Below, piece by piece: positions 1,998-62,438 of a DNA stretch of 64,000 nt. The notes beneath the pieces were generated by a model. The model did no database searches and was not told the origin of the DNA. It saw only the letters and a program-made list of their open reading frames with translations. This DNA comes from a virus. How positions within the stretch are numbered: position 1 is the stretch's first letter; each line of letters begins with the position of its first letter. The stretch lies in IMG/VR virus record IMGVR_UViG_3300045988_076381; one strand, given 5' to 3'. The position numbers and the translations under genes are program-made.

Positions 1998-2225
1998 TCA
2001 TACCTTTTCTAAATCTTTAGTCGAGAATACTCCTTCGCACATATCTCGATTAGAATTAAACCATACACACCTCATTCCAAGAAATGAAATTTCATTTTCT
2101 GATGAATCTACAACTTTTTCCACTATAAGCATTTTAGGCTTAAATGGCATATCGTGTTTTAATTGAACCAAATCTCCTGGTTTTAGAAATATTTTAGGTT
2201 CTTGATATTTAAGACAATTCTTCAT
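1998..2225 (-). CDS. hypothetical protein
   Basis: 75-aa ORF that overlaps the upstream gene by 17 nt. Confidence 0.55.
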   Translation of the reverse strand: MKNCLKYQEPKIFLKPGDLVQLKHDMPFKPKMLIVEKVVDSSENEISFLGMRCVWFNSNRDMCEGVFSTKDLEKV

Positions 2226-2748: not shown

Positions 2749-2768
2749 TTAAATTTAACATAAAACAT

Positions 2769-3035
2769 TTACCATTTATTTAATACACAATGATTATTTT
2801 TATTTCTTGTCTTTGCCATTAGTCTACATCCACATCCTTTAACCCATCCAACCATTTCTACATTAGATACCTGACCAGTACGAGGATTTATCCATAATTT
2901 AGGATCACAATAGCCTCCATATTTTTCTGAATATAAAGGACATTCTTTACATATCTCCAATCTTTTTAAATATAATTTTTCATTTATATTTAAAAATTCC
3001 TTTGCGTGTCCTGATAATATATCTTTAATACTCAT
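2769..3035 (-). CDS. small Cys-rich (zinc-binding-like) protein
   Basis: 88 aa containing CKEC...C...GCGC...HC. Confidence 0.55.
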   Translation of the reverse strand: MSIKDILSGHAKEFLNINEKLYLKRLEICKECPLYSEKYGGYCDPKLWINPRTGQVSNVEMVGWVKGCGCRLMAKTRNKNNHCVLNKW

Positions 3036-3040
3036 GATAT

Positions 3041-13628: not shown

Positions 13629-13701
13629 GGTCCCATAGCGTAAAGGTTAACGCAAAACACTCATAATGTTGAGATTCTAGGTTCAAGTCCTAGTGGGACC
13701 A
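13629..13701 (+). tRNA. trnM: tRNA, anticodon CAT (Met / fMet / Ile2 not distinguished)
   Basis: Hand-folded cloverleaf. Acceptor ggtccca/tgggacc, D stem gcgt/acgc, anticodon loop cTCATAa, T arm ctagg-ttcaagt-cctag. Confidence 0.8.
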
Positions 13702-13824
13702 CGATATTGATTTTCAGGATTTCTGAGGTTTAGAATTTCTGGATTAATGTTTTTTGTAATTTTTTTCATGATCAGTGTTTAACATTAGCAACATTTAATG
13801 AGATGTGATATCTCCTTCCTTATT

Positions 13825-13849
13825 AAGGAGAGTTAATACTCTCCTTTTT
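13825..13849 (+). terminator. stem-loop terminator
   Basis: aaggagag-ttaata-ctctcctt followed by ttt. Confidence 0.55.
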
Positions 13850-13965
13850 AAATTTGTTTATTATGAGAAAGATAGATATAAAATACATAATGACAATAAT
13901 AGGAATATTTATATTTCTATTATTATTATCTTCATTAGAATCAATCATTAATTCTATTTAAATAA

Positions 13966-14039
13966 GAGCGAATATCCAAATTGGTTAAGGGAATAGTCTG
14001 CAAAACTATATTGTGAGAGTTCGAATCTCTCTTCGCTCT
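13966..14039 (+). tRNA. trnC: tRNA-Cys (GCA)
   Basis: Acceptor gagcgaa/ttcgctc, anticodon arm atagt-ctGCAaa-actat, T arm gagag-ttcgaat-ctctc. Confidence 0.8.
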
Positions 14040-14156
14040 CATTAAATATTATATTTAAAAGGTTATATTCGGAAATATATAAGAATGATATCTTTTAAAT
14101 ACTTTAAAATTATATTAATTAAAATAAATAAAAATAATCTTTTAAATATAATAATT

Positions 14157-14426
14157 ATGAAGATCGTGATTAATAGATCCGGAATTGGATTAAATCTATC
14201 TCTACCAGCTATAGAGTATTTAATTAAATATAAAGTAATTAAGTCTCCATTAGATATGAGAAATATTAATAGGAGTAGCCCAAGATTGGTAAGATGTATC
14301 GAAGTATTAGGAGATAACGCATCTTTAGATATGTTAGAAACGATAACAGTTAGAGATGATTTTAAATATAAAATCTCTGAAATCCAAATAGGTAACATCC
14401 ATAGAGAAATTATCCTCATGGAGTAA
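14157..14426 (+). CDS. hypothetical protein embedded in the tRNA cluster
   Basis: ORF 14085..14426. The internal start MKIVINRSGIGLN... at 14157 is more plausible. Confidence 0.45.
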   Translation: MKIVINRSGIGLNLSLPAIEYLIKYKVIKSPLDMRNINRSSPRLVRCIEVLGDNASLDMLETITVRDDFKYKISEIQIGNIHREIILME

Positions 14427-14594
14427 GATATTTACATATGTAAATCTAATTAGTGTACAATAATTAGATATTCCAAGCTCTACTGGTTACAGAGTATAAA
14501 TAAACCTAGATTTTTAGATTTCCAAATTGACCTAAAATCTAATATCTTAGGATTAGATATAAAATAAGCGTGGAATACTTATTGTTAAATCAAC

Positions 14595-14664
14595 TTCTTA
14601 GTAGTTTAACTGGTGAAAATGTCATATACAGTAGGAAATATTAGTTCGAATCCAATCTAAGAAG
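14595..14664 (+). tRNA. aberrant tRNA-like sequence (anticodon arm not foldable)
   Basis: It has a 7-bp acceptor ttcttag/ctaagaa, a D arm gttt/aaat and a T arm attag-ttcgaat-ccaat. I could not form a 5-bp anticodon stem. Confidence 0.3.
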
Positions 14665-14824
14665 TGATAAAGAAACTCATATAATTCATATCTTAATATT
14701 AACCCGAAAAAAGGGCAACAGTAGGGTTGGGGTGGGTTCAGTGCCCTTGAGATAGTATCAAAATCAGCAATAATGCAGATGAGCTGTAACCACCCCTTTT
14801 ATTAATAATTTTGTTTATATTCTA

Positions 14825-14896
14825 TGCGAGATAGTGTAAAGGTAACATCCTAGGCTCATAACCTAGAGGATGGTGGTTCGAATCCATCTCTCGCTA
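14825..14896 (+). tRNA. trnM: tRNA, anticodon CAT (second copy, 1:72 mismatch)
   Basis: Acceptor tgcgaga/tctcgct with a T:T mismatch at 1:72, anticodon arm ctagg-ctCATaa-cctag, T arm ggtgg-ttcgaat-ccatc. Confidence 0.75.
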
Positions 14897-15132
14897 CTAT
14901 ATAATAGACTTCAGATATTTAACGCGGAATATAGAAGTTTGTTATATTTTATAATTATGCATGCTAATTATAAATCCCAACTCATCCTATGTCTAAGGGG
15001 AGTATAAATTAAAAGCAGATCCATCTTTTTGAGTTTGTATTGGTAATGAGAATAACTCTATAACTTAGAAATGTTATAAAACTTTCTTGAATTTAAGATA
15101 TAAGGTTTGGGAACTTACATCATTAAATTAAC

Positions 15133-15207
15133 TCCTCAGTAGCTCAGTTGGCTAGAGCAGCGGACCGTTAATCCGTAGGATCGTAGGTTCAAGTCCTACC
15201 TGAGGAG
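15133..15207 (+). tRNA. trnN: tRNA-Asn (GTT)
   Basis: Acceptor tcctcag/ctgagga, D arm gctc/gagc, anticodon arm gcgga-ccGTTaa-tccgt, T arm gtagg-ttcaagt-cctac. C at position 33 and a 6-nt variable loop are atypical. Confidence 0.7.
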
Positions 15208-15651
15208 CATAATAAAGAGTGTAGTACTAGTGTAGGACTCAACGTAACTTATAGGTTTTGTATTGTACATATAAATTTAGTCCTATTGGGTGTCGTATAA
15301 CCCAACTTAGCTATCGAGTACGGTTAATGATAGCATTTTTATCGAACTTTCATAAAAATAATTATATGAGAAACAAGCATTATTTCCTAATAGATTAATC
15401 TGATAAACCGTATATTGGAGTTGATACACTTATAATTGTCTAATGCAGCTTCGTATTATAAGAAGCAAGTCAATATAAGAAATCAGTTCAGAATAATGTA
15501 TTGTATTCGACGTGGGATTTAAAATTGTATTTATGTGATAGATGTATAGAGAGAAGATTAAGACGGAAAATATCTGGAGAAGATCTAATTCCAAATGATC
15601 CTGTTAATAATTTATATATACAAATATGTCTAGATTTATAATTTATTAATT

Positions 15652-16035
15652 ATGAAAAAGAGAGAACTCCCAAAAGAAGTAAAGAGATGGATTAAATTTT
15701 TTATAAAAACTAATGCTTATTATAATTTTGATTGGGCATTTATGTTAGATGTAGAAAAAGAGAAATTAACTCAATGTATTAAATTTTTTACTGATAACGG
15801 ATGTCATATTAATAATTCCAGAATAATTTCGAAGATGCAATTGGCTGTGAGATTATTAGATATTGCTAGGGATGAGGATTTAGATTTTAAAGGTTATGTA
15901 AATACTAAGAATATAAATAGATTTATTTCTATAGATAAATATGATATTGATATTCTCCCAACTCTTCGAACTGAAAAAGCGTGGTATTTATATAATAAAT
16001 TAAGATATTATTATATGAAAGAATGGTGGGATTAA
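15652..16035 (+). CDS. hypothetical protein
   Basis: 127-aa ORF between tRNA genes. Confidence 0.55.
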   Translation: MKKRELPKEVKRWIKFFIKTNAYYNFDWAFMLDVEKEKLTQCIKFFTDNGCHINNSRIISKMQLAVRLLDIARDEDLDFKGYVNTKNINRFISIDKYDIDILPTLRTEKAWYLYNKLRYYYMKEWWD

Positions 16036-16044
16036 ATATATTAT

Positions 16045-16130
16045 GCTAGAATGGTGAAATTGACAGACACTCAGGACTTAAAATTCTGTGGATAGTAATA
16101 TCCGTGTGGGTTTGAATCCCACTTCTAGTA
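16045..16130 (+). tRNA. trnL: tRNA-Leu (TAA), type II with long variable arm
   Basis: Acceptor gctagaa/ttctagt, anticodon arm cagga-ctTAAaa-ttctg, variable arm tggatagtaatatccgt, T arm gtggg-tttgaat-cccac. Confidence 0.8.
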
Positions 16131-16422
16131 CTATCTAGATGTAGCAAAATCAGTGAAGTTAAATACAGAAATACGCTTCGTAAGAGAACCTGTAGTCCTT
16201 AAAGGATAGTGGTGACACTGAGCCAATCTATTTATATAGAAGGTGAGATTCCAAAAACTACAATATTTATAGGGAATCAATCATATAAGAAATTATATGA
16301 AATCTCTGATAATCTATAGTGCCTTATAGAAAAACAGGGGATGAAGTTAAGGCACAAACTTCATTGGGATATATTCCCGGCGAAAGAGATTTTATATATC
16401 TCTGGATCTGATTATTTAATAG

Positions 16423-16485
16423 TACTTTGTGCATCGGATGCACTCCGAGGGATGTGAGGTTAAGGTTCGACTCCTTACAAAGTGC
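16423..16485 (+). tRNA. truncated tRNA-like element (acceptor + T arm only)
   Basis: Acceptor tactttg/caaagtg and T arm taagg-ttcgact-cctta. It is only about 63 nt. The interior holds the palindrome tgcatc-g-gatgca and has no anticodon arm. Confidence 0.25.
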
Positions 16486-16515
16486 CTAAGTAGTAATTAT
16501 TTAAATATTCATATT

Positions 16516-17415
16516 ATGGAAATTAGAAATGAGAATAAAGTATTTTTTGGAGAGAGTGGTATTACTTCTACTTCTGCTACATATTTATGTAACATTGCTA
16601 GGGAGTTATTAAAAGATATAGAATCATCTTTAAATAATATCTCCTTCATTACTGAGGAAGTAACACTCTTTGGATCTGAGAATAAGATTAGAACTAAAGA
16701 AGGATATAATTTATCCGAACTATCTGATCTAGATTCTAAACTTACTAAAGCTGCACAACTAAAAGCATTTATAGCATGGATGAGTGAAGGAATCAAAGCA
16801 AAAGATGTGGAAAGTGAGAAACTTAGAGAATATACTTTATCTGATTTTATAAAGGATTTCCCTGAATATGTAGTACAGAGGTCTAAAGATTCTACACTAG
16901 ATCCTAATTATGGACTTGGGAAATTAGATGTTTCAGAACGGGTTAAATATCTCTTCTCAGAAGCTTTAACTTCTTCAATTGGGAAATATATTCATAATAA
17001 TGGTGCTTTAAGAAAAGCTTATAGCGAGCTTTTAAATATTGCACATAACAAAGTGAATATAACCACAGAAGCAAAAGATTCTATAGTTGTAGTCACTAAT
17101 AAAATCCCAAGTGTGGATACTAAAAAAGTAGAAAAGATTATGCTTAAATATCAAGATTTACGAAGAGAGAATGAGAAGGTTCTGAACTCTTTGAAATCTA
17201 AGATAAAAAGTTATGATCATGAATATCAAATATATCTTACTCTTGAAGATAAAGCAGCTTCAGAGTCGTATAATGAAAAGATGGAAGTAGTACGTTCAAA
17301 ATATAATGAATATGTATTAAATAAGAGATCGGAAATTGAGAAACTTAAAATCATCATCCCAGATGGTTTAAGGAGTATTTATAACGATCTTCATACCATC
17401 TCAAAAGAAAAATAA
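16516..17415 (+). CDS. hypothetical coiled-coil-rich protein
   Basis: ORF 16429..17415 trimmed to MEIRNENKV..., because its first 29 codons overlap the tRNA-like element. Confidence 0.6.
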   Translation: MEIRNENKVFFGESGITSTSATYLCNIARELLKDIESSLNNISFITEEVTLFGSENKIRTKEGYNLSELSDLDSKLTKAAQLKAFIAWMSEGIKAKDVESEKLREYTLSDFIKDFPEYVVQRSKDSTLDPNYGLGKLDVSERVKYLFSEALTSSIGKYIHNNGALRKAYSELLNIAHNKVNITTEAKDSIVVVTNKIPSVDTKKVEKIMLKYQDLRRENEKVLNSLKSKIKSYDHEYQIYLTLEDKAASESYNEKMEVVRSKYNEYVLNKRSEIEKLKIIIPDGLRSIYNDLHTISKEK

Positions 17416-17693
17416 ATAAAGTAGGTAATACTTAAATCCATTTGGATGGAGGTATTTTTATATGTATAGATTATATATATAATAAAATTTAGCTAAATAA
17501 TATAGACGATAATATAAACTATTAATGCGAAAGAATCCTCAAAAGATGTTTTTATTTAAATAAATATACTTATTTAAATATAAACTATACTCCTCTTTCT
17601 GTCTTAACCTTAGTCCTTGAGAGGATTCTTGCCCTTGACATATTCTTTGGCTGTATTTATATAATCTATACATAACTATTTTTAATAAACATT

Positions 17694-17764
17694 TGTCCTA
17701 TAGTATAATGGTAATACATCTGGTTTTGGTCCAGAGAATTGAGGTTCAAATCCTCGTAGGACAA
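17694..17764 (+). tRNA. trnQ: tRNA-Gln (TTG)
   Basis: Acceptor tgtccta/taggaca, D arm gtat/atac, anticodon arm tctgg-ttTTGgt-ccaga, T arm tgagg-ttcaaat-cctcg. Confidence 0.8.
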
Positions 17765-18147
17765 CAATTCTATAATGGGAATTTTTAGATTGATTATTTC
17801 TTATAGAAAAGTCTGGACAAATTTTGTTTGGACTTTTCTTTTCATTCAATAGATATTGAAAAATTCGAAAACATATGATAAATTCTCCAAATAGTTATTT
17901 AACTGAATATTATATAAATAAAGTTTTGTTTATATAACTCTTTAAAAGACTGTAAAATATTAAAATTTCAAAACTAAACGGATTCTATGGCTTATAAGTA
18001 GAATACCCCTTTCTGTCTATTTTATCAAGCCTAGATACTCTAAAACTATTTTTAAGTCAACTTCCAGATATGGTATGTTTGGACTATTATAGATTTTTGG
18101 AGTTCTAGGCTTTTTTATTTTCATTTTTCAAACTCGGATTTTCAAGT

Positions 18148-26598: not shown

Positions 26599-27008
26599 AT
26601 GAATAGAAAAGAAAGAACTATCTCCGAAAATATGGAGAAATTAATGATAGACCAAATCTCAAGAGAATTATATAATCATAATGTATATAGAACATATGCG
26701 AATTACTATTATGTAAGAGGATTGTTTAAATTACATCTTTATTATGAGATGAGATCTAACGAGGAATATAATCATCATCAATGGATTGTTGATAGATTAT
26801 ATAGAGCCGGAGTTGATTTTAATTATCCAGAAGTACCAGCTATTAAATCTAATCATGTTATATTAAAGCCAGAAGATAGTTTTCAGAAAGTAGTAGATTT
26901 AGAGATTGAAACTACTATGTATATAAATAAAATGATAGAAACTGCGAAAGAGGAGAAGGATTGGCAGACGGAGGGATGGTTAAAGAGGACGTTAAATGAA
27001 GAGCAGAT
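26599..27008 (+). CDS. ferritin, exon 1
   Basis: ISRELYNHNVYRTYANYYY...EMRSNEEYNHHQWIVDRL...DLEIETTMYINKMIETA...WLKRTLNEEQ parallels bacterial FtnA up to the EQ.EEE motif. Confidence 0.8.
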
Positions 27009-27200
27009 AAACTTTTGTCTGAAAGTATGGTAACATACAGGTGAATAGATCAAAATCGATGAAGTCTAATTTAGATAATATCGAGGTAAGTATGAATTTA
27101 AAGGATTCATACCACTGTAACGCGTAGGTGTTGAAACTATTAATTATTTATAAATTATATTTTTGCAGAAGAGATAATTGTTTTTATCGTGGAAGAATAT

Positions 27201-27208
27201 TAACTTTG
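27201..27208 (+). promoter_or_regulatory. -7 box TAacTTTG inside the intron, upstream of the endonuclease ORF
   Basis: It lies 31 nt upstream of the ATG at 27239. Confidence 0.4.
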
Positions 27209-27238
27209 TATTTATTACATTTTAATATTTAAATTCTT

Positions 27239-28006
27239 ATGGATAAAAACAGAAAACTAGAATTTGAGGGAAAGATATTTCCTACGAATAATTGTGGCGA
27301 GCTAAAAATCATCGAATATAATGGAGCAACTAATGTAGTGGTGGAGTTTATTACTACTAAAACTATACATTCTACCACTATGAATAACATCAAGAAAGGA
27401 TCAGTATCCGATCCTATGTATCCAACAGTATATGGAATAGGATATATGGGTATAGGAGAGTATAAAAGTAGGACTGGGACTAGTCCTCAAACAACTTGCT
27501 ATAAACGATGGAAAGAAATTCTTAATCGATGCTATAATCCTAAATGTTCTGCTTATAAATTTTATGGAGGAAATGGAGCAATTATATGTGAAGAATGGAA
27601 AAATTTCCAAAATTTTGCATCTTGGTGGTATTCTAACTTTCCAAATTGGGAAGGAATTAAAATTGCTATAGATAAAGATTTATTATGTAAGGGAAATAAG
27701 GAATATTGTCCTGAATACTGCTGCTTTTTACCTCAAGAAATAAACGAAGCTCTTACTTTAAGAAAAAAGGAAAGAGGGGATTATCCAGTTGGAGTACGGT
27801 TAAAAGAAGGAAAAATTATTGCTCAAATTAATTACATGGGAAATAAAAAACATTTAGGAACATTTTCCACTGTTGAAGATGCTTTTGCAAAATATAAAAT
27901 AGAAAAGGAAAAGTGTATGAAAGAATATGCTGATAAATACAAAAATATACTTTCGGAGAGAGTGTATCAAGCATTATATAACTACACTATAAATATAGAT
28001 GATTAA
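27239..28006 (+). CDS. intron-encoded homing-endonuclease-like protein with AP2 DNA-binding domain
   Basis: YKRWKEILNRCYNP....YKFYGGNGAIICEEWKNFQNF is common in phage proteins annotated as HNH/AP2. The C-terminus YPVGVRLKEGKIIAQINYMGNKKHLGTFSTVEDAFAKY is AP2-like. Confidence 0.55.
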   Translation: MDKNRKLEFEGKIFPTNNCGELKIIEYNGATNVVVEFITTKTIHSTTMNNIKKGSVSDPMYPTVYGIGYMGIGEYKSRTGTSPQTTCYKRWKEILNRCYNPKCSAYKFYGGNGAIICEEWKNFQNFASWWYSNFPNWEGIKIAIDKDLLCKGNKEYCPEYCCFLPQEINEALTLRKKERGDYPVGVRLKEGKIIAQINYMGNKKHLGTFSTVEDAFAKYKIEKEKCMKEYADKYKNILSERVYQALYNYTINIDD

Positions 28007-28177
28007 TAGAATAAAATATACCCAAGAGTGATCTACTCCTACAGGTAATGCTGAGGATGAAAATGTACGCTGAACCGTCTGATGATTAAATCAGAATATC
28101 TTTATTTACATCTTCAATAAAGTAAGGAGGAGACTCCCGGAAGTAAGAGATAAAAAACTCTTACGATAACAAAATTG

Positions 28178-47280: not shown

Positions 47281-47937
47281 ATGGAAAAAATCTCAATCTC
47301 ATTAGATCGTGAATTAGATCTAATGACACAATATAATCTATCAGCCGAGGAATGGTGGATTATACAATTATTATTTCTCGCTCAATATCCTGAGGGAAGG
47401 ATAGATCCTTTAGAACGATATAGTAAAATTATAGGTGGATTTAAATATGATATAATTGAATCTCTCCAATCTAAAGGAGTATTAAAAAAGATGAATATTA
47501 AAAAAGGAGATCATTTTGAGATAGATGATTTACAGTTTAATTATGTAAAAGGTGAAGATAAGAAAACATATCCATTAGATATTCCATTCACTGCTAATTT
47601 TATTAAGTCTTATTTAAAACATTCTGGGGAATTAGGGAAGGAATTGTTCCTAGAATACCCAAGTTTTATATACATTAATAATTCTCCTGTAAATGCTCGT
47701 AGTATAACGACTGGGAATCATTTCGGATCTATGGAAGATTTCTTTTTCTTTTACGGAAAGACTATAAAATGGAATCCAACATTACATAGAGAAATAATTG
47801 ACCTGCTACAATGGGGAAAAGAAAATGATATGATAAAAATGGGGATTTCTACATTCGTTATTAACCAATCATGGATTGCTTTAAAAGAGGCTAGGGATAA
47901 GGGTATGGGATCGGTGGATATAAATACTCTTATATGA
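47281..47937 (+). CDS. hypothetical protein upstream of helicase
   Basis: 218 aa with an ATGA-type overlap onto helicase exon 1. A loader or initiator role is only a positional guess. Confidence 0.55.
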   Translation: MEKISISLDRELDLMTQYNLSAEEWWIIQLLFLAQYPEGRIDPLERYSKIIGGFKYDIIESLQSKGVLKKMNIKKGDHFEIDDLQFNYVKGEDKKTYPLDIPFTANFIKSYLKHSGELGKELFLEYPSFIYINNSPVNARSITTGNHFGSMEDFFFFYGKTIKWNPTLHREIIDLLQWGKENDMIKMGISTFVINQSWIALKEARDKGMGSVDINTLI

Positions 47938-48080
47938 ATTTAATTGATTCTTTTTATCAAAAAGTAGAAGAAGGGAAGAAAGGGAATAATATGGGTATAC
48001 CATCCGGATTTCCTAAATTGGATAAGTATATATATGGTATACAAAGAAGGTTTATGAGCACAGTTATTGCCGATTCGGGT
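47934..48080 (+). CDS. DnaB-like replicative helicase, exon 1
   Basis: MNLIDSFYQKVEEGKKGNNMGIPSGFPKLDKYIYGIQRRFMSTVIADSG. It stops inside the Walker A motif. Confidence 0.7.
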
Positions 48081-48393
48081 AAATTAAGTGCCCCTATTTA
48101 ATACAAATAAATAGAAAACCATTTGAATTGCTAGGAACTCGCGAAGATTTAGTAACTAAAACATCAGAAGAAATTCTAAATGTAAATGTTAAAAATACTA
48201 AATTATGTGATAATTAGCAGCTAAGCTCCTAAGGATGTAATCTATGGAGAAAGTTCAACGACTATCTCGAAAGAGAGTAGGGCTAAGTAGCTCGAAGCGG
48301 ATGGTATAATATTTTAATATTATAATGAAATAGTCTAATCTTACACGAAAGTGTAAGAGTATATATGGAAACGATATATACGTAATATAATTG
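48081..48393 (+). mobile_element. ORF-less intron (group-I-like, different scaffold) in the helicase Walker A
   Basis: 313 nt with no ORF. The 5' exon ends gggT, which can pair with Gccc 9 nt downstream. The insert ends ...ataattG. Removing it restores ADSG-AGKSS. Confidence 0.65.
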
Positions 48394-49374
48394 GCAGGTA
48401 AGAGTTCTGTGGCCATATTCATGTATATCTATAAACCTTTAGTTTATTCCTTAGAACATCCAGAGATACCTGTAAATATTCTCGCATTAAGCTTTGAAAT
48501 GTCAAAAGAAGTACTTCTCGCTAAACTTCTCTCTCTTTATATCCTTGATAAATATCATATTGATATTAGTTATTCTGAAATATTCTCATTAGATAAACCT
48601 GTTTCAAACGATAAACTTAAATACATCTACGATGCTAGGGATTGGTTAACTAAAGTAGATGATAAATTAACCATCTACGATACTCCTTTAAATTCCACTG
48701 GAGTATATAATATCCTCAGAGCATGGGCTGGATATTTTGGGAAGTTTGAAACAGACGATAATGGTGAGAGGTATATAAAGAATGATAGAAATCAATATTT
48801 AATAGCAGTATTAGACCATTGTAAGTTATTAAAGAATAATGGTTCCGGAATTAAGCATGAAATAGATGAAACAGCTAAACATTTTATTTATTACCGTAAT
48901 CTGTGTGATATGACAATATGCGCTGTTCAACAAGCTAATAGACAATTTAAATCTATGGATAGAAGAAATTCCGAACATAATTATCTCGAATTACAAGATG
49001 CTCAGGATACTGCGGACATGACACAAGCATCAGAAATTGTTATTGGTGTCTATCATCCATTCAGAGAGAAGAAGGCTAAGTGTGAAGGGTTTGATATTAA
49101 GAAATTACGAGATAACTTTAGGTTGATCCAATTGCTTAAAGGACGATTTGGACAGTCTGATGTTGTTGAGGGTTGTATTTTCCAAGGAAGTATAGGATAT
49201 TTTAAAGAATTAGATCCTCCCGAAGATGGAAAGAGATTTGATTACGGTAGAGTTCTGAGAATGGATTATTTATTCGAAGAATTTGATAATCAACAAAAGA
49301 AAAAAGAAGAGTTAGATAGAGTTATTAAAGAAGATGAAGAAGATGAAGTACTTGAATTTAATTTTAATGTATAA
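48394..49374 (+). CDS. DnaB-like replicative helicase, exon 2
   Basis: AGKSSVAIF..., LIAVLDHCKLL (Walker B), AVQQANRQ (H3-like), LLKGRFG. Confidence 0.7.
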   Translation, partial: AGKSSVAIFMYIYKPLVYSLEHPEIPVNILALSFEMSKEVLLAKLLSLYILDKYHIDISYSEIFSLDKPVSNDKLKYIYDARDWLTKVDDKLTIYDTPLNSTGVYNILRAWAGYFGKFETDDNGERYIKNDRNQYLIAVLDHCKLLKNNGSGIKHEIDETAKHFIYYRNLCDMTICAVQQANRQFKSMDRRNSEHNYLELQDAQDTADMTQASEIVIGVYHPFREKKAKCEGFDIKKLRDNFRLIQLLKGRFGQSDVVEGCIFQGSIGYFKELDPPEDGKRFDYGRVLRMDYLFEEFDNQQKKKEELDRVIKEDEEDEVLEFNFNV

Positions 49375-49461
49375 ATGGCTATAGTATTACCAACAAGTAA
49401 AATACAACCAACAGAAACTGAACCTAGGGTATTAGTTATATTCTCGAAGCCAAAGAGTGGT
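49375..49461 (+). CDS. AAA_24/Sak4-like ATPase, exon 1
   Basis: MAIVLPTSKIQPTETEPRVLVIFSKPKSG. It stops inside the Walker A motif. Confidence 0.6.
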
Positions 49462-49501
49462 AAATTTTATTAAAATATTTGGATAAGTAAAATTTTATGG
49501 A

Positions 49502-49509
49502 TATCTTTG
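49502..49509 (+). promoter_or_regulatory. -7 box TAtcTTTG inside the intron
   Basis: It lies 29 nt upstream of the ATG at 49538. Confidence 0.4.
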
Positions 49510-49537
49510 TAATTATTATTAATACAAATATATAATT

Positions 49538-50761
49538 ATGAAGAATAAAATTTTACAACTAAGTAAGAATTGTAATAGTCTAGAAATAGCTAGAATACTA
49601 TCATTATCTCTAAATGAAGTAGAAAAAGTTTTAATTGATGAATATTTTCAAAAGAAATGGAAGATATCTAAAAAGGATCTTGAAGAATTAGCTGCAAGAA
49701 TCTATAATGAATCTCCAACTCTACTATCAGATGAATTTAATATATCAGAAGTAACATTAAAAAAATATTTAGCAGATTGCAAATTGTTTAATACTAAGAA
49801 AAATGTTATCTATGTTCAAAAATCAGAGGAAGAAATTGAAAAATTAGTTCCGGATATAGTTTTAGATTATAATAACCAATTATCTATTGCACAATTAATG
49901 GTTAAATATAAGTTATCTAAAGATAAAGTTAAAGAAATTTTACATAATAATGAAATTTCAACCGGAAAAGTGACCTGTAATGAACATATATTTGATATAA
50001 TTGATTCGGAAGAAAAGGCATATTGGCTAGGGTTCCTATATGCAGATGGAGCAGTGGGGAGTGCTGATAATACTATTGAATTAGCATTAAAACTTTTGGA
50101 TTGTAAACATCTATATAAATTCAAAACTTTTATAGAAGCCAAAAGGGATATAAAAATAGAAACTAGTAAAGTTAAAAGATGCAGATTCTCTGTAAGTAGT
50201 AAACATTTAAAGTCACAACTTATTAAATTAGGTTGTACTCCTCAAAAGTCCTTAACTCTTAAATTTCCAACTAAAGAACAAGTTCCAGATGACTATATCA
50301 TTCCATTTATAAGAGGGTATTATGATGGAGATGGAATATTAACATATAGTTGTTCTACCACTGGTAGAACAGTTTTAGCTACTGGTATGTTGGGAACTGA
50401 AAATTTTTTAACTGGAGTTTTAAGTAAGTTTAAGTATCCATTACATTCTATTTTGCGTTTAGCTAGTTTGGAAGGATCAAGCGAATGTAAACAAGTAAAT
50501 TGGTCAAAAACTGATTCTGAGGAGTTTTTAAATACTATTTACAAAGATGCTACAATTTTTTTGGATAGAAAATATTTACGATACAAATATTTTAAAGACA
50601 ATGGATTTGCCGTCCAAAAAAGTAATTTTTTGGATAATGACAGAGCAATATCGGAAGAGTCTAAACAATGGATTAATCAGTATTTTAGTATAGATATTGA
50701 TTCCTTATTGCATGATAATTCCGAGATAAATATAGAAAGTAACGATTCTATATCATCGTAA
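49538..50761 (+). CDS. intron-encoded double-motif LAGLIDADG homing endonuclease
   Basis: The motifs are KAYWLGFLYADGAVG and FIRGYYDGDGIL, with N-terminal HTH-like repeats. The stop codon TAA lies within the ribozyme block tcgTAAcgcgtag. Confidence 0.8.
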   Translation: MKNKILQLSKNCNSLEIARILSLSLNEVEKVLIDEYFQKKWKISKKDLEELAARIYNESPTLLSDEFNISEVTLKKYLADCKLFNTKKNVIYVQKSEEEIEKLVPDIVLDYNNQLSIAQLMVKYKLSKDKVKEILHNNEISTGKVTCNEHIFDIIDSEEKAYWLGFLYADGAVGSADNTIELALKLLDCKHLYKFKTFIEAKRDIKIETSKVKRCRFSVSSKHLKSQLIKLGCTPQKSLTLKFPTKEQVPDDYIIPFIRGYYDGDGILTYSCSTTGRTVLATGMLGTENFLTGVLSKFKYPLHSILRLASLEGSSECKQVNWSKTDSEEFLNTIYKDATIFLDRKYLRYKYFKDNGFAVQKSNFLDNDRAISEESKQWINQYFSIDIDSLLHDNSEINIESNDSISS

Positions 50762-50939
50762 CGCGTAGGTGTTGAAACTGTATTTATTTAAATACAGAAT
50801 AAAATATACCCAAGAGTGCTCTGCTCCTATTTAATAGGATGAAAAAGTACGCTAAACTGGATCAGAAATAACTGATCGATAATCAATGAGGGAAACCTCC
50901 AGAACTAAAAGATAAAAAGCTTTTAGGATAATATAATTG

Positions 50940-51731
50940 AAATCAACGGCTTTAAGCCTATTAGATAATAACTTAATACTAGATACAGAAAAGGGAACAG
51001 CGTATATTGAAGCATTAAAAGTAGATATTTCTTCAGTTAAAGATATATTAGAAGTATGTAAACAAGTTAAGGCAGCAGGATATCCTTATAAATATATAAC
51101 TCTAGATACTTTAACTTCTTTAGAGGAAATTCTACAACCGTATGCTTTAAATCTATGGAAGAAATCTAACGCATATAATCCAGAAAAGAATCCAGAACAA
51201 CTAAAAGTAACTGATGTATATAGTTTACCTTTTGGGTTAGGCCAAAAGTATATGAGAGATTCATATTTAGCAGTAATCGGATTATTACAACAAGTATGTA
51301 AAAGAATTATTCTAGTATGTCATTCAAAAGATGCGAAAATAAATGAAAATGAATTAACTATAAAAGATATTGATTTAGCTGGAAAATTATCTGATATTAT
51401 TGCATCTAGATATGATGGAGCTGGATATTTATATAGGGATATAAATGATAATACTATTATTACTTTTGATATAAAACAGCTTGCAGCAGAATGTAAATGT
51501 AGAGTTCCTAGATTAGATGGTAAGAAGTTTGTATTAATCGAGAATCGAAATGGGGAATTAATACCTCATTGGGATCGTATTTATTCTTCCGAACCTTATA
51601 GTGGAGAAGATGTAGTTACTACTCCCCAGATTAATGTTACAGATATTTTAGATAAGGAAGATCAATCTGAAAATTCTAACATATCTGAAGAGGAATCTGA
51701 AGTAGATAAACTTTCAAATATAGAATTATAA
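50940..51731 (+). CDS. AAA_24/Sak4-like ATPase, exon 2
   Basis: KSTALSLLDNNLILDTEKGTAYIE...YITLDTLTSLEE...ILVCHSKD. Confidence 0.6.
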   Translation, partial: KSTALSLLDNNLILDTEKGTAYIEALKVDISSVKDILEVCKQVKAAGYPYKYITLDTLTSLEEILQPYALNLWKKSNAYNPEKNPEQLKVTDVYSLPFGLGQKYMRDSYLAVIGLLQQVCKRIILVCHSKDAKINENELTIKDIDLAGKLSDIIASRYDGAGYLYRDINDNTIITFDIKQLAAECKCRVPRLDGKKFVLIENRNGELIPHWDRIYSSEPYSGEDVVTTPQINVTDILDKEDQSENSNISEEESEVDKLSNIEL

Positions 51732-55841: not shown

Positions 55842-56322
55842 AAGAAATATTTTAATTAAATTACATAATTGTAATAAAAATATGCTTATATATAAAGAAG
55901 AATATAAAGATGATTTCGATGATAATATCCTAAGATGTTTAACTTGTATCCAAACTAATAATGAGGTAAAGGGATTTTTATGTCTTATTCATTATTTAAA
56001 GGAACGATATAGAAGCAACTTATTTAATATCAAATATTATATATTGAATAACTTTAAACCAACTGCAATTGAAGAAGCCTTAGGAAAAATATATGAAAAT
56101 ACATTTATTGAAATAATTAAAGATTTATTAGATAATAAATTTAATGAAATTTGCGATTTTGTAGACTATTTTATTCTATATACTAATTCCAAGTTTGAAT
56201 TATTTATAGAATTTTATACGGATACAAGATTAATAGAAGGGAAGGAGTTTTTCGATAATTTAAAACAACTTATTCCTGATATTACTATACATAGAACTGT
56301 GAATGGAGAACTTCGGGACTGA
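55831..56322 (+). CDS. hypothetical protein (tandem family, member 3)
   Basis: VKGFLCLIHYLKERYRSNLFNIKYYILNNF. Confidence 0.55.
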   Translation: MKNKRNILIKLHNCNKNMLIYKEEYKDDFDDNILRCLTCIQTNNEVKGFLCLIHYLKERYRSNLFNIKYYILNNFKPTAIEEALGKIYENTFIEIIKDLLDNKFNEICDFVDYFILYTNSKFELFIEFYTDTRLIEGKEFFDNLKQLIPDITIHRTVNGELRD

Positions 56323-57097
56323 TTTAATATCTAGAGAAGTATTATCTAAATTTAAGATAAAAATATTATCAATAAATAGTTTAGATATAACTGATGAAGT
56401 ATATTTTTCTGATAAATATTCTAATTATATATCTAATTCTAAATTAAAACTGATAAATCCTAATGAAGGAGGATCATTTAAAACATATTTAGAAGGATTA
56501 AAATCTAAATCTACTGGATCTCTGGATTTAGGATCAGCAGTTCATGAGTTAGTTCTACAAAATGAATCATTTGAATTAAATTCTTATATCAAACCATCTG
56601 GTAAAATTGGGAAAGTTATAGAGGTTGTATTTAAATATAGAAATAAGGGATATTCCATATTAAATGCAATTCGAAAAGCTTCCGAAGAAGTTTCTTATTA
56701 CATATCTCAATTAACTGATACAAGAATATCTAATATAATCTCATCTGGATTTAAATATTATCTTTATTTATATAAAAATAAAGATATTAAATATGATAAA
56801 GAACAAATAATCTTGGATGAAAAATCTAGGGAAACTTGTATAAAATGTGTAGATTCTATTAGAAGAAATTCTGATGCAATGAATCTCCTTTCCCCAGATG
56901 AATTTTCATTAGATCAGTATTTAAATAAGAATGAGGATACTATAGTGATGGAAATAGTAGTAACCTTCCCTAACAGTACTTCCGATCCAAATGCAGAAGA
57001 AGTAAGTATTTTGTTAAAGTTAAAAGCTAAGATAGATAATTGGAATTTAAATATAGATGAGGGTTTATTAAATCTAAATGATTTAAAAACTACAGGT
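56303..57097 (+). CDS. PD-(D/E)XK nuclease (second paralog), exon 1
   Basis: GSAVHELVLQ..., ...LLNLNDLKTTG (D-x-K-T motif). The ORF stop at 57101 lies inside the intron. Confidence 0.65.
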
Positions 57098-58372
57098 AAG
57101 TAAAATTTTTTTATTGTATTTTATTTGTTTTATTTCATTAAATGTATTTAATTTGTATATTATTAAATTATACAATAAAAATACATTTATGAATAATCTA
57201 AATCAAGCTATTAGTGATTACGAACATTTATTTATAGGAATTTGTGAATTAAGTAAAAAATATAAAATTCCTAATAAAGAAATTAGAAAAGCGTTAGAAG
57301 ATAAAGGATATTATTTAGGAAAAGGAGTATCTCCAAAAAGTGTTGTGCATATTAAACTTGCAGTAGAGGAATATAAAAATATTCTTAATGCTGGTGAAGA
57401 ACCTAATATTCATCAACTGGCATTAAAGTATGATATTTCCGATACGTCTATAAAAGACAATTTAATTAGATTAAATCTTCCTGTTGTAAGATACCCTAAA
57501 AAAATCCATTTTGATGAACATGTCTTTGATGTTATAGATACTGAAGAAAAAGCATATTGGCTAGGATTTTTAACTGCTGATGGGTATATTTATAGTAGAG
57601 ATAATACATTTGGAATTAGTCTAGCTAGTATAGATAAGCATCATGTAGAAAAATATGCCACATTTCTTAAATGTCCTCAACATGTTAAATTTAAGAATAA
57701 CGAATATGCTGGAATATATAGATGTGATTTAGGAAACGCTCATGTAAAGCAAGTATTACAAAAATATGGATTTACTGCTTCTAAATCTTTTGACTGTACC
57801 TTTTTAAAAGACCAGTTTTTTGCAAATTCCGATTTAATAAGACATTATATTAGAGGATATTTTGATGGAGATGGCTGTGTCAGTTATAAAAAAAAGTATA
57901 GAAAAACAATTAATGCCACTATTTATATTCCGATAGTTTCTATAGTTGGAACAGAAGCTTTTTTACAAGAATTAAGAAATAAATCAAATTTAATTTGTCT
58001 TTTTCAGTCACAACAAAATCTATGGAATTTATATGGATCTGGAAAAAAGGCAAAAGATTTTCTTTATTACATTTATAATAACGCTACTATTTATTTAGAT
58101 AGAAAATACAATATTTATAGAAATTATATTGCCCCACACTTAGAGAAATCAAGTGTTCCGCAGTGGCCAATATCGGTGGATACTGAAATGTAAATACCGA
58201 GATAAATTCAGAGATTACGAAAGGCTCTGAATCATCGTAACGCGTAGAAGGTGAATAAATATAATCCTTCCAAGAGTGGCTGCCACCTTAAAGGGTGAAA
58301 ATGTACGCTGAACTATATCGAATAACAAGATATAGAAATAAAGGATAAAAAGCCTTTATGATAACAAAATTG
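57098..58372 (+). mobile_element. group-I-like intron carrying a LAGLIDADG endonuclease ORF
   Basis: It starts after ...acaggT and ends ...gataacaaaattG. It has the core blocks gtaacgcgtag (58237-), ccaagagtg (58270-), gtacgctgaac and gataaaaagcc. Confidence 0.75.
57189..58193 (+). CDS. intron-encoded double-motif LAGLIDADG homing endonuclease
   Basis: KAYWLGFLTADGYIY and YIRGYFDGDGCV. It is clearly a paralog of 49538..50761. The ATG at 57189 is preferred over 57114. Confidence 0.8.
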   Translation: MNNLNQAISDYEHLFIGICELSKKYKIPNKEIRKALEDKGYYLGKGVSPKSVVHIKLAVEEYKNILNAGEEPNIHQLALKYDISDTSIKDNLIRLNLPVVRYPKKIHFDEHVFDVIDTEEKAYWLGFLTADGYIYSRDNTFGISLASIDKHHVEKYATFLKCPQHVKFKNNEYAGIYRCDLGNAHVKQVLQKYGFTASKSFDCTFLKDQFFANSDLIRHYIRGYFDGDGCVSYKKKYRKTINATIYIPIVSIVGTEAFLQELRNKSNLICLFQSQQNLWNLYGSGKKAKDFLYYIYNNATIYLDRKYNIYRNYIAPHLEKSSVPQWPISVDTEM

Positions 58373-58684
58373 AAACCATGGTATTTATTCCCAGGATCTA
58401 TAGTAAAAGAAACAGGAGAATTTGTTGAAGGTTCCTTTCAACATTATCATTACTATCGCCAATTATCTATGTATTTCTGGATGCTCAAGCAATATCTAAC
58501 TTCGGAAGGATATAAATTAAACAAATCTTATTTAAATATAATCTCTGTACAAACTATTCCTAATTATTCTACAGTAGTATTTAGAATCCCAAATAAATGG
58601 TTTGTTAAAGGATTGAAGGAATTTAAAACCTTACTATCATACGCTGCTTATGCTGAATATAATAAAGAAAAAATATTATCATGA
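58373..58684 (+). CDS. PD-(D/E)XK nuclease (second paralog), exon 2
   Basis: KPWYLFPGS...HYYRQLSMYFWMLKQ (QxxxY), in frame with exon 1. Confidence 0.65.
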   Translation, partial: KPWYLFPGSIVKETGEFVEGSFQHYHYYRQLSMYFWMLKQYLTSEGYKLNKSYLNIISVQTIPNYSTVVFRIPNKWFVKGLKEFKTLLSYAAYAEYNKEKILS

Positions 58685-59258: not shown

Positions 59259-59837
59259 ATGGCAAAATTGTTTATGACCAATGTAAAAGGATTTAGTAAA
59301 GAAGAAGCAATGTGTGAACTTCCGTTAGAAATTAATCAAAATGCAACTGCGAAATGGCGTGCTGCTGGAGAACCTACTTTTGGTTCAGATGATTTCCGAG
59401 CATTCGCTGAGAACTTCATCAGCAACAAACATATGATTACTGGAGCTGGTGCTTATATTCAGAAAACTTCTCCTGTAGCTGATACTCGTACGAAACCTTA
59501 TAAAATTGTAAACTTCAAGAAAGAAGGTAAGACTAAATGGGAAACCGTATATAATGTTTGTGAAGCAGAATTTAACTTAGATAAAGAAGGTAAATTTAAA
59601 TCAATTGAATCAATTGGTATGCCTGTAGATCAATCTGCTGTTAATAAGGCTGATGCCGAACGTAAAATGCGTGAATTGATTGCTCAAAATAAACGTAATT
59701 ATGTAGTAAGAAAGACTAAAGAAGTTGTTGAGGATGAAGCTTCTAAGAACGGAGAAATCTTGTGTGCAGGTGTTTATACTCCGTCAATTACTACTAAACA
59801 AGGAGAATTTTATGTATTTGGATTAGTTAAAGAATAA
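59259..59837 (+). CDS. hypothetical protein, stand-alone transcription unit
   Basis: 192 aa with its own promoter motif and a strong terminator. Its codon usage is less AT-biased than the neighbours. Confidence 0.65.
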   Translation: MAKLFMTNVKGFSKEEAMCELPLEINQNATAKWRAAGEPTFGSDDFRAFAENFISNKHMITGAGAYIQKTSPVADTRTKPYKIVNFKKEGKTKWETVYNVCEAEFNLDKEGKFKSIESIGMPVDQSAVNKADAERKMRELIAQNKRNYVVRKTKEVVEDEASKNGEILCAGVYTPSITTKQGEFYVFGLVKE

Positions 59838-59973: not shown

Positions 59974-61131
59974 ATGAAACTAGAATTATCTAAATCGATC
60001 TTAGAATCCATCTCAAGTAGAGTAAATAACGATATTTTTACATTTGATGATGTAGAAAGTGAATATAAATTCGATAATATTCAAGAAAAGTTATATAATA
60101 GATTATATAAAAACTATCAGGATTTAACTCCACCACAATTTGATTTAGATACATTTAGATTCACATATAAAATACTTTGTCAAAACTCTGGAGTGAAGAA
60201 GACTCCTCAGAAACAATTAAATAAAGTTAAGGATAGAAAAATTGTATATGATGCTACTACTGATGAATCTTTCGAAAGTAGAATTGTTGGTTCATCTGTA
60301 AGAGATGAAGAAGGTAAAGTAATACATTATGAATTTAGAATCCTTATTAGAGATAAAGAATCTTTTGAAGGTACTCTCACATTATCTGAAATGCAGGATA
60401 TTTATGTTGGATATTCTAATAGAGGATATAATTTATCAGCTAGGAAATTGTCTGAGAAATTCCCACAATATGATTTGATTCAATTAAAGAAGATTTTAAG
60501 AGCATTTCAGATTACTAAAGATTGTTACCCTTTTGCTCCACATATTGCAGAAAGTAAGAGTAAAGAGGAATTAGAAAGGATGTTATTAGATTTAAAATTA
60601 CATTCTGCTTCTAAGAACGCTGATAGAGATGAGATACAAGATAAGAATAAATATATCTTAGAATTAACTAAGGAACTTAACAAGTATAGGGATAAAGAAA
60701 CATTCGTTAAGGATTTACTTAGAATTCCTGTTAAATATAATACTCCTATAACGCCTTTATATTCCGATGCTAATGAATATACTAATACGTTAGTTATATT
60801 CTTATCTGATATGCATATTGGAGCTTATAATCCTAAATATGGATTTATACAATTGGAAGATTATAATAAAGAAGAAATTAGTAGGAGATTAGATAAAGTA
60901 TATAATTTTATTATTAATAAATTATTTGATAATTTAATTATCTGTAATTTAGGAGATAGTGTAGATTCTTATAAAGGTGAAACTGTTAGAGGTCATGAAT
61001 TACCTACTACTATTACTCCAAAAGAACAATCTAAGATGTATTTAGATGTTATGTTAGAGTTCTTTAATAAATTACTTGATTATGTAGAAAATTCTCATAT
61101 TAAATATATTTGTATTGGAGATTCAAATCAT
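59974..61131 (+). CDS. calcineurin-like metallophosphoesterase (Mre11/SbcD-like?), exon 1
   Basis: LVIFLSDMHIG (motif I), ICNLGDSVD (motif II), ICIGDSNH (first part of the GNHD motif). Confidence 0.65.
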
Positions 61132-61433
61132 TGATTGTATTTAAATACAATTTGTGCTAATAATAAGAAATTATTATTCGAAACTAGGTTAACTGCTGGG
61201 ACGCCTGAGATGGTAATCAGCAACCAAGCTACAGATTTAAATTCTGTAGAAGGCTCATCGACTATTCCTGAAATGGAAGTAGAATCAAGCGATTCGAAAT
61301 GCCTAGCCCTTAGCATTATATCTAACACAGATATAGATGAAGGTGAAGATATAGTCAGTTCTCATATTAATAAGGAAGTATGAGGAGGTTTTATTAACCC
61401 GTATAAGAGTAGCGAACTTATATGAACACGAAG
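61132..61433 (+). mobile_element. ORF-less intron (type unresolved) after GDSNH
   Basis: 302 nt, higher G+C, starting after ...aatcaT and ending ...cacgaaG. Removing it restores GDSNH-DGDWG (GNHD). Confidence 0.6.
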
Positions 61434-61571
61434 GACGGTGACTGGGGATGGCTAAATAATATTGTTCTTGCCTCTAAATTAGAGCAATTAAATATAGAAT
61501 CTTATATTTCCGATCTTCCAATTGATAAATTTGATGTTGGAAATAATTCTATACTATTCATGCATGGTGAT
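61434..61571 (+). CDS. metallophosphoesterase, exon 2 (46 codons)
   Basis: DGDWGWLNNIVLASKLEQLNIESYISDLPIDKFDVGNNSILFMHGD. It has no start codon of its own and is in frame with both neighbouring exons. Confidence 0.6.
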
Positions 61572-62141
61572 ATATTTTTCATATTTTTAATATAATTATT
61601 TGGGTTCCATAGAAATAATTTATATTTGTTAAATAATAATATATTTAATAAATAAAGATCATTCTAAAATGCTCCTTTCCTTATTAGGAACAGAAGATTT
61701 TTAAATTCTATACAAGATGTATTTTCTACTAAGTACACTTTGGAATATAATCATAATGATAAGAATTCTAAAACTAGAGTACTAGAAATAGCTTGTAGAC
61801 CAGGGCTTAACATTTTACATAAATTATATTCACACTCAAAAATATATTTAAAAAGAAAATATGAAAGATATTTAGAATATTGCCGTCTATATGAGGAATC
61901 ATATAGAGAATTAGAAACCAATAACGGGGAAGGCTGTGATGTCAATCCCGTGATAAGTACAGAAAGTAAAGAGTCTGTGCCATCGTAACGCGTAGAACTT
62001 GAACCTCGAAAGAGAATAAAATAGTTCCAAGAGTGGTTTCTACCCCAACACTTTTATAAGTAGTGGGTAAAAAGGTACGCTGGACTATAGCAAAAAGAAG
62101 CTATAGAAGTTAGGATAAAAAGCCTAACGATAACAAAATCG
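61572..62141 (+). mobile_element. group-I-like intron (shared scaffold) with a decayed LAGLIDADG ORF
   Basis: It ends ...gataacaaaatcG. It has the core blocks gtaacgcgtag (61985-), ccaagagtg (62028-), gtacgctggac and gataaaaagcc. It follows the HGD motif. Confidence 0.7.
61740..61988 (+). pseudogene. C-terminal remnant of a LAGLIDADG endonuclease gene
   Basis: LHKLYSHSKIYLKRKYERYLEY parallels IYKDATIFLDRKYLRYKYF and IYNNATIYLDRKYNIYRNY of the intact copies. Both LAGLIDADG motifs are missing. The stop is again in tcgTAAcgcgtag. Confidence 0.6.
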
Positions 62142-62438
62142 AAAGATAGCGATTCCCAGTTTAAAGGAATGCCTCTTACATTGAATGATAGAACAATAAA
62201 TTGGGTAAATGATTATATTTATGATTCTGGATTAAAATTTAAAGACAATCTCTATGTAGTAAAAGGAGATTTACATCAATATGCTATAACAGAATCCAGA
62301 AGGTTTCAATATATTTCTGTTCCAAGTTTATATGGATCTTCTAATTATATAGCTGCTAATTTTGGGAAGACTAAATGGGGAGTAGGTTTTATGGAAGTAT
62401 TTAATGACCATGTAACAACTGGAGTAATTAAGGAGTAA
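62142..62438 (+). CDS. metallophosphoesterase, exon 3
   Basis: KDSDSQFKGMPLTLND...VVKGDLHQYA (GxxH-like)...VPSLYGSS. The frame is open from 62142, 9 codons before the listed ATG. Confidence 0.6.
   Translation, partial: KDSDSQFKGMPLTLNDRTINWVNDYIYDSGLKFKDNLYVVKGDLHQYAITESRRFQYISVPSLYGSSNYIAANFGKTKWGVGFMEVFNDHVTTGVIKE

Follow-up and report, generated by a model that had tools for sequence, protein, structure and literature searches.

We analysed a 64,000-nucleotide (nt) stretch of viral DNA (one strand of the IMG/VR record IMGVR_UViG_3300045988_076381; hereafter the window) and studied the gene at 59974-62438, which encodes a predicted metal-dependent phosphoesterase and is interrupted twice. 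All coordinates are those of the window unless a related genome is named, and all features described here lie on the plus strand. The gene consists of three exons and two introns. Exon 1 (59974-61131, 386 codons) encodes an N-terminal domain of about 260 amino acids (aa) and motifs I-III, and its last base, U61131, marks the 5' splice site. Intron 1 (61132-61433, 302 nt) is a group I intron without an endonuclease gene. It is followed by the micro-exon, exon 2 (61434-61568, 45 codons), which reads DGDWGW...SILFMHG and carries motif IV, H430-G431. Intron 2 (61569-62141, 573 nt), which we assign to group I and to a phage-wide family, has an endonuclease open reading frame (ORF) in the loop of helix P1. 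Exon 3 (62142-62438, 98 codons and the stop) begins with KDSDSQFKGMPL... and carries motif V, GDLH. Very probably, this is one phage metallophosphoesterase gene with two independent group I introns, the second of which contains a decaying endonuclease gene.

The three exons were recognised as separate reading frames. The ORF of exon 1 (59974-61134) has the C-terminus ...KYICIGDSNH, followed by TGA, and contains motifs I-III, as the first-pass annotation of this DNA had stated. On its 3' side lie a start-less frame, DGDWGWLNN...SILFMHG, and a third frame that runs up to 62438; joining the three gave a 529-aa protein. The first-pass annotation had described an ORF-less insert of 302 nt, a start-less exon of 46 codons and a 570-nt intron of a shared family. 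The position and length of the first insert were exact, but a mechanical frame of 82 codons (61135-61383) lies inside it. The micro-exon does start at 61434 and has no usable start codon, but it is one codon shorter. The second intron does belong to the shared family, as judged by a covariation-supported fold, but measures 573 nt.

Both junctions could be fixed because natural intron-less alleles exist. A tblastn search with the joined protein found it in one uninterrupted piece in MT835492.1, a human-gut phage record (L001). The 508-aa ORF of this record aligned to the joined protein without a gap across either junction (42% identity, E 5e-109), with IGDSNHDGDWGWLN opposite IGESNHGGDFEWLN at junction 1 and FMHG-DSDSQFKGMPLTLN opposite YVHGKDSRNQTRQFPLTLN at junction 2. 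A large protein collection contained 230 homologues of the joined protein. Three of them have no interruption and read SNHDGD and LHGKD, namely P0004 (60% identical, 537 aa), P0010 and P0011, while in P0001 (97% identical) and P0002 (85%) exons 1 and 2 are fused and then run into intron 2. A global contig alignment showed that 61132-61433 is exactly missing from the related genomes L002 and L005, which read ...SNHDGDWGW.... In L128, which lacks intron 2, exons 2 and 3 are contiguous and read FMHGKDSDSQFKGMPLVLN. With a slash marking the insertion point, the residues across the intron 2 site are HG/KD in L128 (FMHGKDSDSQFKG), P0004, P0010, P0011 and L001, and uninterrupted homologues overall read ...SNH/DGD... 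and ...MHG/KDS.... At the nucleotide level, the intron-less sites of the gene are TTCATGCATGGT joined to AAAGATAGCGAT and GATTCAAATCAT joined to GACGGTGACTGG.

The introns are inserted directly after catalytic motifs, at SNH/D (motif III) and HG/K (motif IV), a position usual for homing elements. Splicing had been expected to restore GNHD and HGD, which was incorrect on both counts: motif III is SNHD, and the D of 'HGD' is intron sequence because all uninterrupted homologues read HG/KD. A junction at HGD/K was rejected, as it would introduce an extra residue that is absent from 30 of 30 aligned homologues, and U61571 would face A instead of G. Each intron is present without the other in relatives, with intron 2 but not intron 1 in L002 and intron 1 but not intron 2 in L128. 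The label 'twin-intron' is apt in that there are two introns, with junctions read from intron-less alleles, but the arrangement is not a twintron (an intron inside an intron), which was ruled out by the 135-nt conserved coding exon between the introns and by their independent occurrence.

Exon 2 is conserved as coding sequence. It had the same length and was stop-free in five related genomes, and synonymous codon differences outnumbered non-synonymous ones (11/7, 7/2, 13/9 and 15/9). Exon 1 was 98.6% identical to that of L040 and 97.8% to that of L002. Exon 2, however, was 86-88% identical to these closest relatives (exon 1 there 98%), yet 93% identical to the more distant L005; this is a local mosaic between the two introns. 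A co-conversion tract was considered as its source and rejected: the closest exon 2 is that of L005, a genome without intron 1, rather than one from a genome that carries this intron, and no simple donor could be identified.

The joined protein contains the motifs SDMHIG (I), LGDSVD (II), GDSNH (III), H430-G431 (IV) and GDLH (V). Among 30 homologues, D279, H281, G327, D328, N385, H386, H430 and H476 were invariant, and G431, K432, G473, D474, L475 and H476 were invariant or nearly so, with H430, G431 and K432 adjacent. The PHROG database returned phrog_22398 ('unknown function', E 2.6e-26), phrog_284 ('exonuclease', E 4.9e-22) and phrog_704 ('DNA repair exonuclease', E 2e-9), and the Pfam family Metallophos (PF00149), below its cut-off on the spliced protein itself, matched 5 of 26 homologues at E ≤ 0.01 (best 7e-5). 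An AlphaFold model had a mean predicted local distance difference test (pLDDT) score of 81, and its top Foldseek matches in PDB were GpdQ (1.4e-8), Rv0805, Mre11 and PolD DP1 (1e-8 to 1e-5). The fold and the conserved motifs indicated that the C-terminal 260 residues or so are a calcineurin-type metallophosphoesterase. The protein shares with Mre11/SbcD, GpdQ, Rv0805 and PolD DP1 the fold and the motifs DxH, GDxxD, (G)NH[D/E], H and GxxH; it differs in its extra N-terminal domain of about 260 aa, which has no known relatives, and in motif III, SNH. In contrast to Mre11/SbcD, no SbcC/Rad50-like partner was identified beside the gene. Given the DNA-metabolism genes nearby and the names of the PHROG matches, the enzyme may plausibly act as a nuclease. 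Directly upstream, at 59259-59837, lies a 192-aa gene without a Pfam or PHROG match. Its position is kept in the 42%-identical relative (L001 1938-2618), and it may encode a functional partner of the phosphoesterase.

Intron 1 is a canonical group I intron. A covariance-model search matched it to the Rfam family Intron_gpI (RF00028) at 61137-61376 with 67 bits (gathering score 50; E 1.9e-16), and the alignment covered the full model, 1-253. The element pairs AACUGCUGGGA and AAUCAGCAACC (P/Q) and UCGACUAU and AAGAUAUAGUC (R/S) were identified. In the P1 hairpin, exon CAU pairs with GUG, placing a U61131·G61154 wobble at the cleavage site; P2 (61159-61178) follows directly, and the last base of the intron is G61433, just before exon 2. 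The match was obtained by a permissive Rfam scan of 1.5 kb. A gathering scan of the whole window reported tRNAs alone, and a permissive scan of 17 kb reported nothing; scans of at most 1.5 kb were needed for this intron and for another at 48071-48357, both of which were lost by the Infernal speed filters in longer scans. The misses in long scans are thus an effect of the speed filters and not absence. Intron 1 had been described as unlike the other introns; it is indeed unrelated to the intron 2 family, but it is of the same Rfam type as the intron at 48071-48357.

Relatives indicated where intron 1 may come from. It is 97.7% identical to the introns of L040 and L053, is present without an ORF in L127, L040 and L053, and is missing from L002 and L005. 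At the same site, L128 has an intron that shares about 95% identity with it in the core and contains an intact 292-aa LAGLIDADG ORF with the motifs YVLGFLYADGCNY and FIRGYFDGDGCIW; this ORF continues through the ribozyme core as ...KKLLFETRLTAGTPEMVISNQ.... By this comparison, intron 1 is an ORF-less derivative of a LAGLIDADG-bearing intron. The 82-codon frame at 61135-61383, which continues in the phase of exon 1 immediately beyond its stop codon, is no gene but the relic C-terminus of a LAGLIDADG ORF overlapping the ribozyme core. Read-through of the TGA into this frame was rejected, as the frame never connects to exon 2.

Because Rfam found nothing on intron 2, its fold was built by hand and tested for covariation. 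The 3' half of the intron resembles window positions 58167-58375, 50717-50818 and 28005-28175. In a phage database, intron stretches 70-73% identical were found in the crAss-like phages cr6_1, cr118_1, cr125_1 and cr114_1 and in Lak-A1, as well as in Staphylococcus phages at about 70% identity, and the pattern GTAACGCGTAG-N20-50-CCAAGAGTG occurred in at least 120 viral contigs or loci of IMG/VR. The family model was read from the sequence and tested on 41 diverse aligned members. Standard pairs filled 84.9% of the cells, against 31-42% when the partners were slid by 1-3 columns. The covariation score was 0.518, against 0.08-0.11 in the slid controls, and in 500 shuffles these values were not attained once. 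Many compensatory double changes were found in the inner six pairs of P3 and in P4, P5, P6, P7.1, P9 and P9.1.

In this model the ribozyme core, delimited by family alignment and covariation, spans 61877-62141. The 5' strand of P1 (61564-61573, AUGGU/GAUAU, with cleavage after U61568) pairs with the 3' strand (61877-61886), which includes the internal guide GCCGU (61882-61886), to form a 10-bp duplex of -9.6 kcal/mol with U61568·G61882 at the splice site. Another candidate guide, GCCAU at 61979-61983, was rejected, as it falls in J6/7 of the covariation-supported model, and it is GCCGU that gives the 10-bp P1. The other helices are P2 (61887-61894/61899-61906); P3 (61912-61919/62035-62042, UAGAAACC/GGUUUCUA), in a pseudoknot with P7; P4 (61924-61929/61946-61951, ACGGGG/CCCGU), with P- and Q-like elements alongside; P5 (61932-61934/61941-61943); P6 (61957-61963/61974-61980); P7 (61990-61994/62076-62080, GCGUA/UACGC); P7.1 (61995-61998/62024-62027), between P7 and P3'; P8 (62044-62047/62064-62067); P9 (62085-62091/62100-62106); and P9.1 (62109-62114/62123-62128). 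The intron ends on G62141, and the conserved 3' end GATAACAAAAT(T/C)G is closed by G in most family members. L002 and L040 have exactly the same core sequence (100% identity). When the shortest allele, the 282-nt intron of L005, was folded by minimum free energy without constraints, P1 to P9.1 emerged unaided. By structure, the model identifies intron 2 as a group I intron of a family beyond the curated Rfam model, presumably of an IA2-like subgroup with a P4-P5 region resembling that of td.

The endonuclease ORF of intron 2 occupies the P1 loop, with the 5' splice site on one side and the internal guide on the other. In L040, where intron 2 is 1,307 nt long, and in L002, this ORF is intact: it encodes 351 aa, has both LAGLIDADG motifs, YWLGFIFADGYIY and FIRGYIDGDGCIS, and is 32% identical (E 4e-46) to another intron ORF of the window (57189-58193). 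Relative to L040, the window has lost 734 nt between 61652 and 61653 (L040 3193-3926), which removed the start codon and codons 1-240, and 1 nt in a T-run between 61697 and 61698 (L040 3972; T6 to T5), which shifted the frame. Of the 351 codons of the ancestral ORF, 241-351 are left, with the stop, at 61653-61988. A remnant of about 80 codons without either LAGLIDADG motif had been noticed before; the open part (61740-61988) does have 82 codons, holds ...IYLKRKYERYLEY... and lacks both motifs, but the full remnant is 112 codons' worth, broken by the 1-nt deletion. By itself it gave no family match in Pfam or PHROG. The remnant is a LAGLIDADG pseudogene fragment and not a member of the family. 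The 734-nt deletion has a 3-nt microhomology (TAA) at its bounds and lies wholly within the P1 loop. The other 489 nt compared on the 3' side of the scar (61653-62141) are identical to L040, and the same was found against L002; given this identity, the deletion is very recent.

Further alleles of intron 2 were found in related genomes. In L053 (IMGVR_UViG_3300045988_060497, 2159-3214), whose endonuclease gene has 12 substitutions relative to that of L040, a stop replaces W142 of the ORF, which represents a third state of decay unless the stop codon is recoded. In L005 and L006, the intron consists of six 5' bases and everything from window position 61876 on. The L005 deletion ends exactly at the edge of P1 and thereby at the 5' edge of the core, and the window deletion also stops short of the internal guide. 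The first 112 nt of the intron 2 core also encode the end of the endonuclease, namely its last 36 codons with the stop; the stop is the UAA inside CGUAACGCG, in J6/7, and the coding end overlaps the region from the P1 3' strand through J6/7. That the same nucleotides encode helices P1'-P6 explains why both deletion alleles have kept the sequence for the C-terminus. The intron 2 site is empty in L128, P0004, P0010, P0011, L001 and more distant homologues. At the two sites of this gene, the relatives form a series of empty site, intact endonuclease, nonsense allele, partial deletion and minimal intron. The intact 351-aa ORF of L040 bears out the proposal that the endonuclease degenerated, but its degeneration 'after fixation' applies only to the nearest relatives (at least 97% identity), as more distant ones have empty sites.

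The window contains at least six recognised group I introns, none of which (0 of 6) was reported by a default whole-window Rfam scan. The intron at 48071-48357 is canonical (RF00028, 83 bits, E 9.6e-22), has no ORF and splits a DnaB-like helicase gene (ORFs 47934-48101 and 48391-49374). An ATPase gene at 49375-51731 is split within Walker A, ...SKPKSG/KSTALS..., into exon 1 (49375-49461) and an exon 2 that begins at 50940. The intron between them (49462-50939) contains a 407-aa LAGLIDADG ORF (49538-50761), and its 3' part belongs to the intron 2 family; the 5' strand of P4 was sought for this copy and not found. A gene for a DUF3799/PD-(D/E)XK-type exonuclease (56303-58684) is split after ...LKTTG at 57097 by another member of the family (57098-58372), in which the LAGLIDADG ORF at 57189-58193 is intact; L002, L005 and L127 have uninterrupted orthologues of 369 aa. 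A fourth member, at about 27030-28177, adjoins the end of the ferritin-like gene 26599-27033 on its 3' side. Its 5' splice site is ambiguous, and it has a different ORF of 255 aa (27239-28006), located in the P7.1 loop and not in the P1 loop. ARAGORN called a tRNA cluster at 13629-17765 (Met, Cys, Met, Asn, Leu and Gln), with a weak extra Rfam call at 14595-14664; no suppressor tRNA was among the genes called.

We propose the following course of events for the phosphoesterase gene. After transcription, each intron would fold and its internal guide would pair with the end of the upstream exon, so that U·G wobbles form at U61131 and U61568. The introns would then excise themselves, ending on G61433 and G62141, and self-excision would join 59974-61131, 61434-61568 and 62142-62438. 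Both introns were probably spread by LAGLIDADG homing endonucleases encoded in the P1 loop, with the 3' ends of their ORFs entering the core. Where the ORF also forms P1'-P6, it cannot be lost without destroying the ribozyme, and has been retained for this reason.

Several observations weigh against this interpretation. We infer splicing in this genome from the sequence. PF00149 scored 16.7 bits on the spliced protein, below its cut-off of 21.5, and sequence searches of PDB, whether started from the protein or from a profile of 26 sequences, returned nothing relevant. RF00028 gave no match to intron 2 up to E 10, neither with the window copy nor with the ORF-less L005 allele. The group I assignment of intron 2 rests on our own structural model, in which P7, being part of the search pattern, is invariant and shows no covariation, and P8 is poorly aligned across the family. 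In addition, the window is alone among the retrieved relatives in having the 734-nt deletion allele.

This last observation would fit a genome in which intron 2 no longer splices, the lost LAGLIDADG protein having been its maturase and the phosphoesterase gene being a pseudogene in the making. Some LAGLIDADG proteins are known splicing maturases, for example I-AniI and bI3, and with 489 identical nt beside the scar the deletion is so recent that selection may not have acted on a non-splicing allele. However, the ribozyme core of intron 2 is 100% intact, and the older lineage L005/L006 retains its 282-nt ORF-less intron in an otherwise intact, conserved gene. L053 likewise combines a nonsense endonuclease allele with intact exons, and two paralogous LAGLIDADG proteins encoded in the window could act in trans. 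We consider loss of splicing improbable.

The confinement of the deleted allele to the window is also what would be seen if the 734-nt and 1-nt deletions were assembly or sequencing artefacts and the real genome had an intact endonuclease gene like that of L040. A homopolymer is the site of one lesion (T6 to T5), and a chimeric assembly is possible in mixed populations, where the odd divergence of exon 2 (86-88%, against 98% for exon 1) might also arise. Against this, two independent lesions fall in the same dispensable segment, the larger one is bounded by the TAA microhomology and stays wholly in the P1 loop, and L005 and L053 have comparable natural decay states; an artefact is very improbable. 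The chance that the inserts are inteins, recoded or read-through sequence, or introns of another type is negligible: the frame after the exon 1 TGA is open for 82 codons, and stop recoding in some gut phages is described in PMC7886860, but that frame has no link to exon 2 and is explained as an endonuclease C-terminus, the tRNA cluster has no suppressor, and the Rfam match of intron 1 and the covariation of intron 2 favour group I. Inteins and group II introns in particular were ruled out by stops in all frames of both inserts and by the wrong end sequences, as intron 2 has GAUAU...UCG and not the group II ends GUGYG...AY.

Classic phage group I introns are those of T4 td, nrdB and nrdD, of SPO1 and of Twort, and multi-intron genes occur in the Staphylococcus phages Twort and K. 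The two introns described here share with them the architecture of self-splicing group I introns, insertion at codons of active-site motifs in DNA-metabolism genes, several introns per gene, presence/absence polymorphism among close relatives, and a P7.1 between P7 and P3', which is characteristic of subgroup IA. They differ in the endonuclease, which is of the LAGLIDADG type, whereas the classic introns mostly carry GIY-YIG or HNH enzymes. The location of the ORF also differs: here it occupies the loop of P1 and shares 112 nt with the core, whereas ORFs of classic phage introns are looped out of P6a, P8 or P9. The allele series resembles the Goddard-Burt cycle, in which homing endonucleases are gained, degenerate and are lost, as known for yeast mitochondrial omega, in that empty, intact, nonsense, partial-deletion and ORF-less stages coexist at one site. 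In contrast to omega, the stages are found among phages and one gene shows them at two sites, and precise intron loss as the return route is suggested here by the empty sites.

Intron-dense genomes have been described from gut phages, among them Zeta and Delta crAss-like phages (PMC7886860) and Jug jumbo phages (PMC12880540). The first of these papers describes gut phages in which a genome can have as many as 14 introns, with several introns in one gene and with LAGLIDADG ORFs; in the second, splicing of predicted introns was verified in metatranscriptomes for other gut phages. As in our case, these are human-gut contigs of about 160 kb with many group I introns, genes in at least three pieces and LAGLIDADG intron ORFs. 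The sections of both papers available to us contain no description of a metallophosphoesterase host gene or of such an allele series. The family-A DNA polymerase of the window was closest, at 34% identity, to those of Sashavirus-type siphophages; placement among crAss-like groups by this polymerase was rejected as uninformative.

It is established that group I introns interrupt phage DNA-metabolism genes, that multi-intron genes and presence/absence polymorphism occur, and that endonuclease genes degenerate. To this the locus adds a well-resolved two-site allele series in one gene, together with an intron family that is missed by Rfam and whose P1-loop ORF overlaps the core. The case is real and well documented, yet ordinary among intron-rich gut phages; it leaves current understanding unchanged but adds a clean example, and its alignment can be used for an intron family that is poorly modelled. 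For annotation, it means that automatic pipelines would report one 529-aa enzyme as a truncated protein of 386 aa, two fragments of 57 and 89 aa and an orphan of 82 aa. For the biology of homing endonucleases, the related genomes provide an unusually complete natural series of their life cycle in a phage population, and the series reveals which part of the ORF is protected through doubling as ribozyme. A broader proposal is tentative and, in our judgement, rather doubtful: that the intron 2 family is a large phage-wide group I clade invisible to Rfam. In the copies examined here, the LAGLIDADG ORF is placed in the loop of P1 and shares about 36 terminal codons with P1'-P6, and the two independent natural deletions, in the window and in L005, would directly read out the boundary between dual-coding and dispensable sequence. 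If this clade and its arrangement are indeed undescribed, many 'split' phage genes would be mis-annotated for want of a model.

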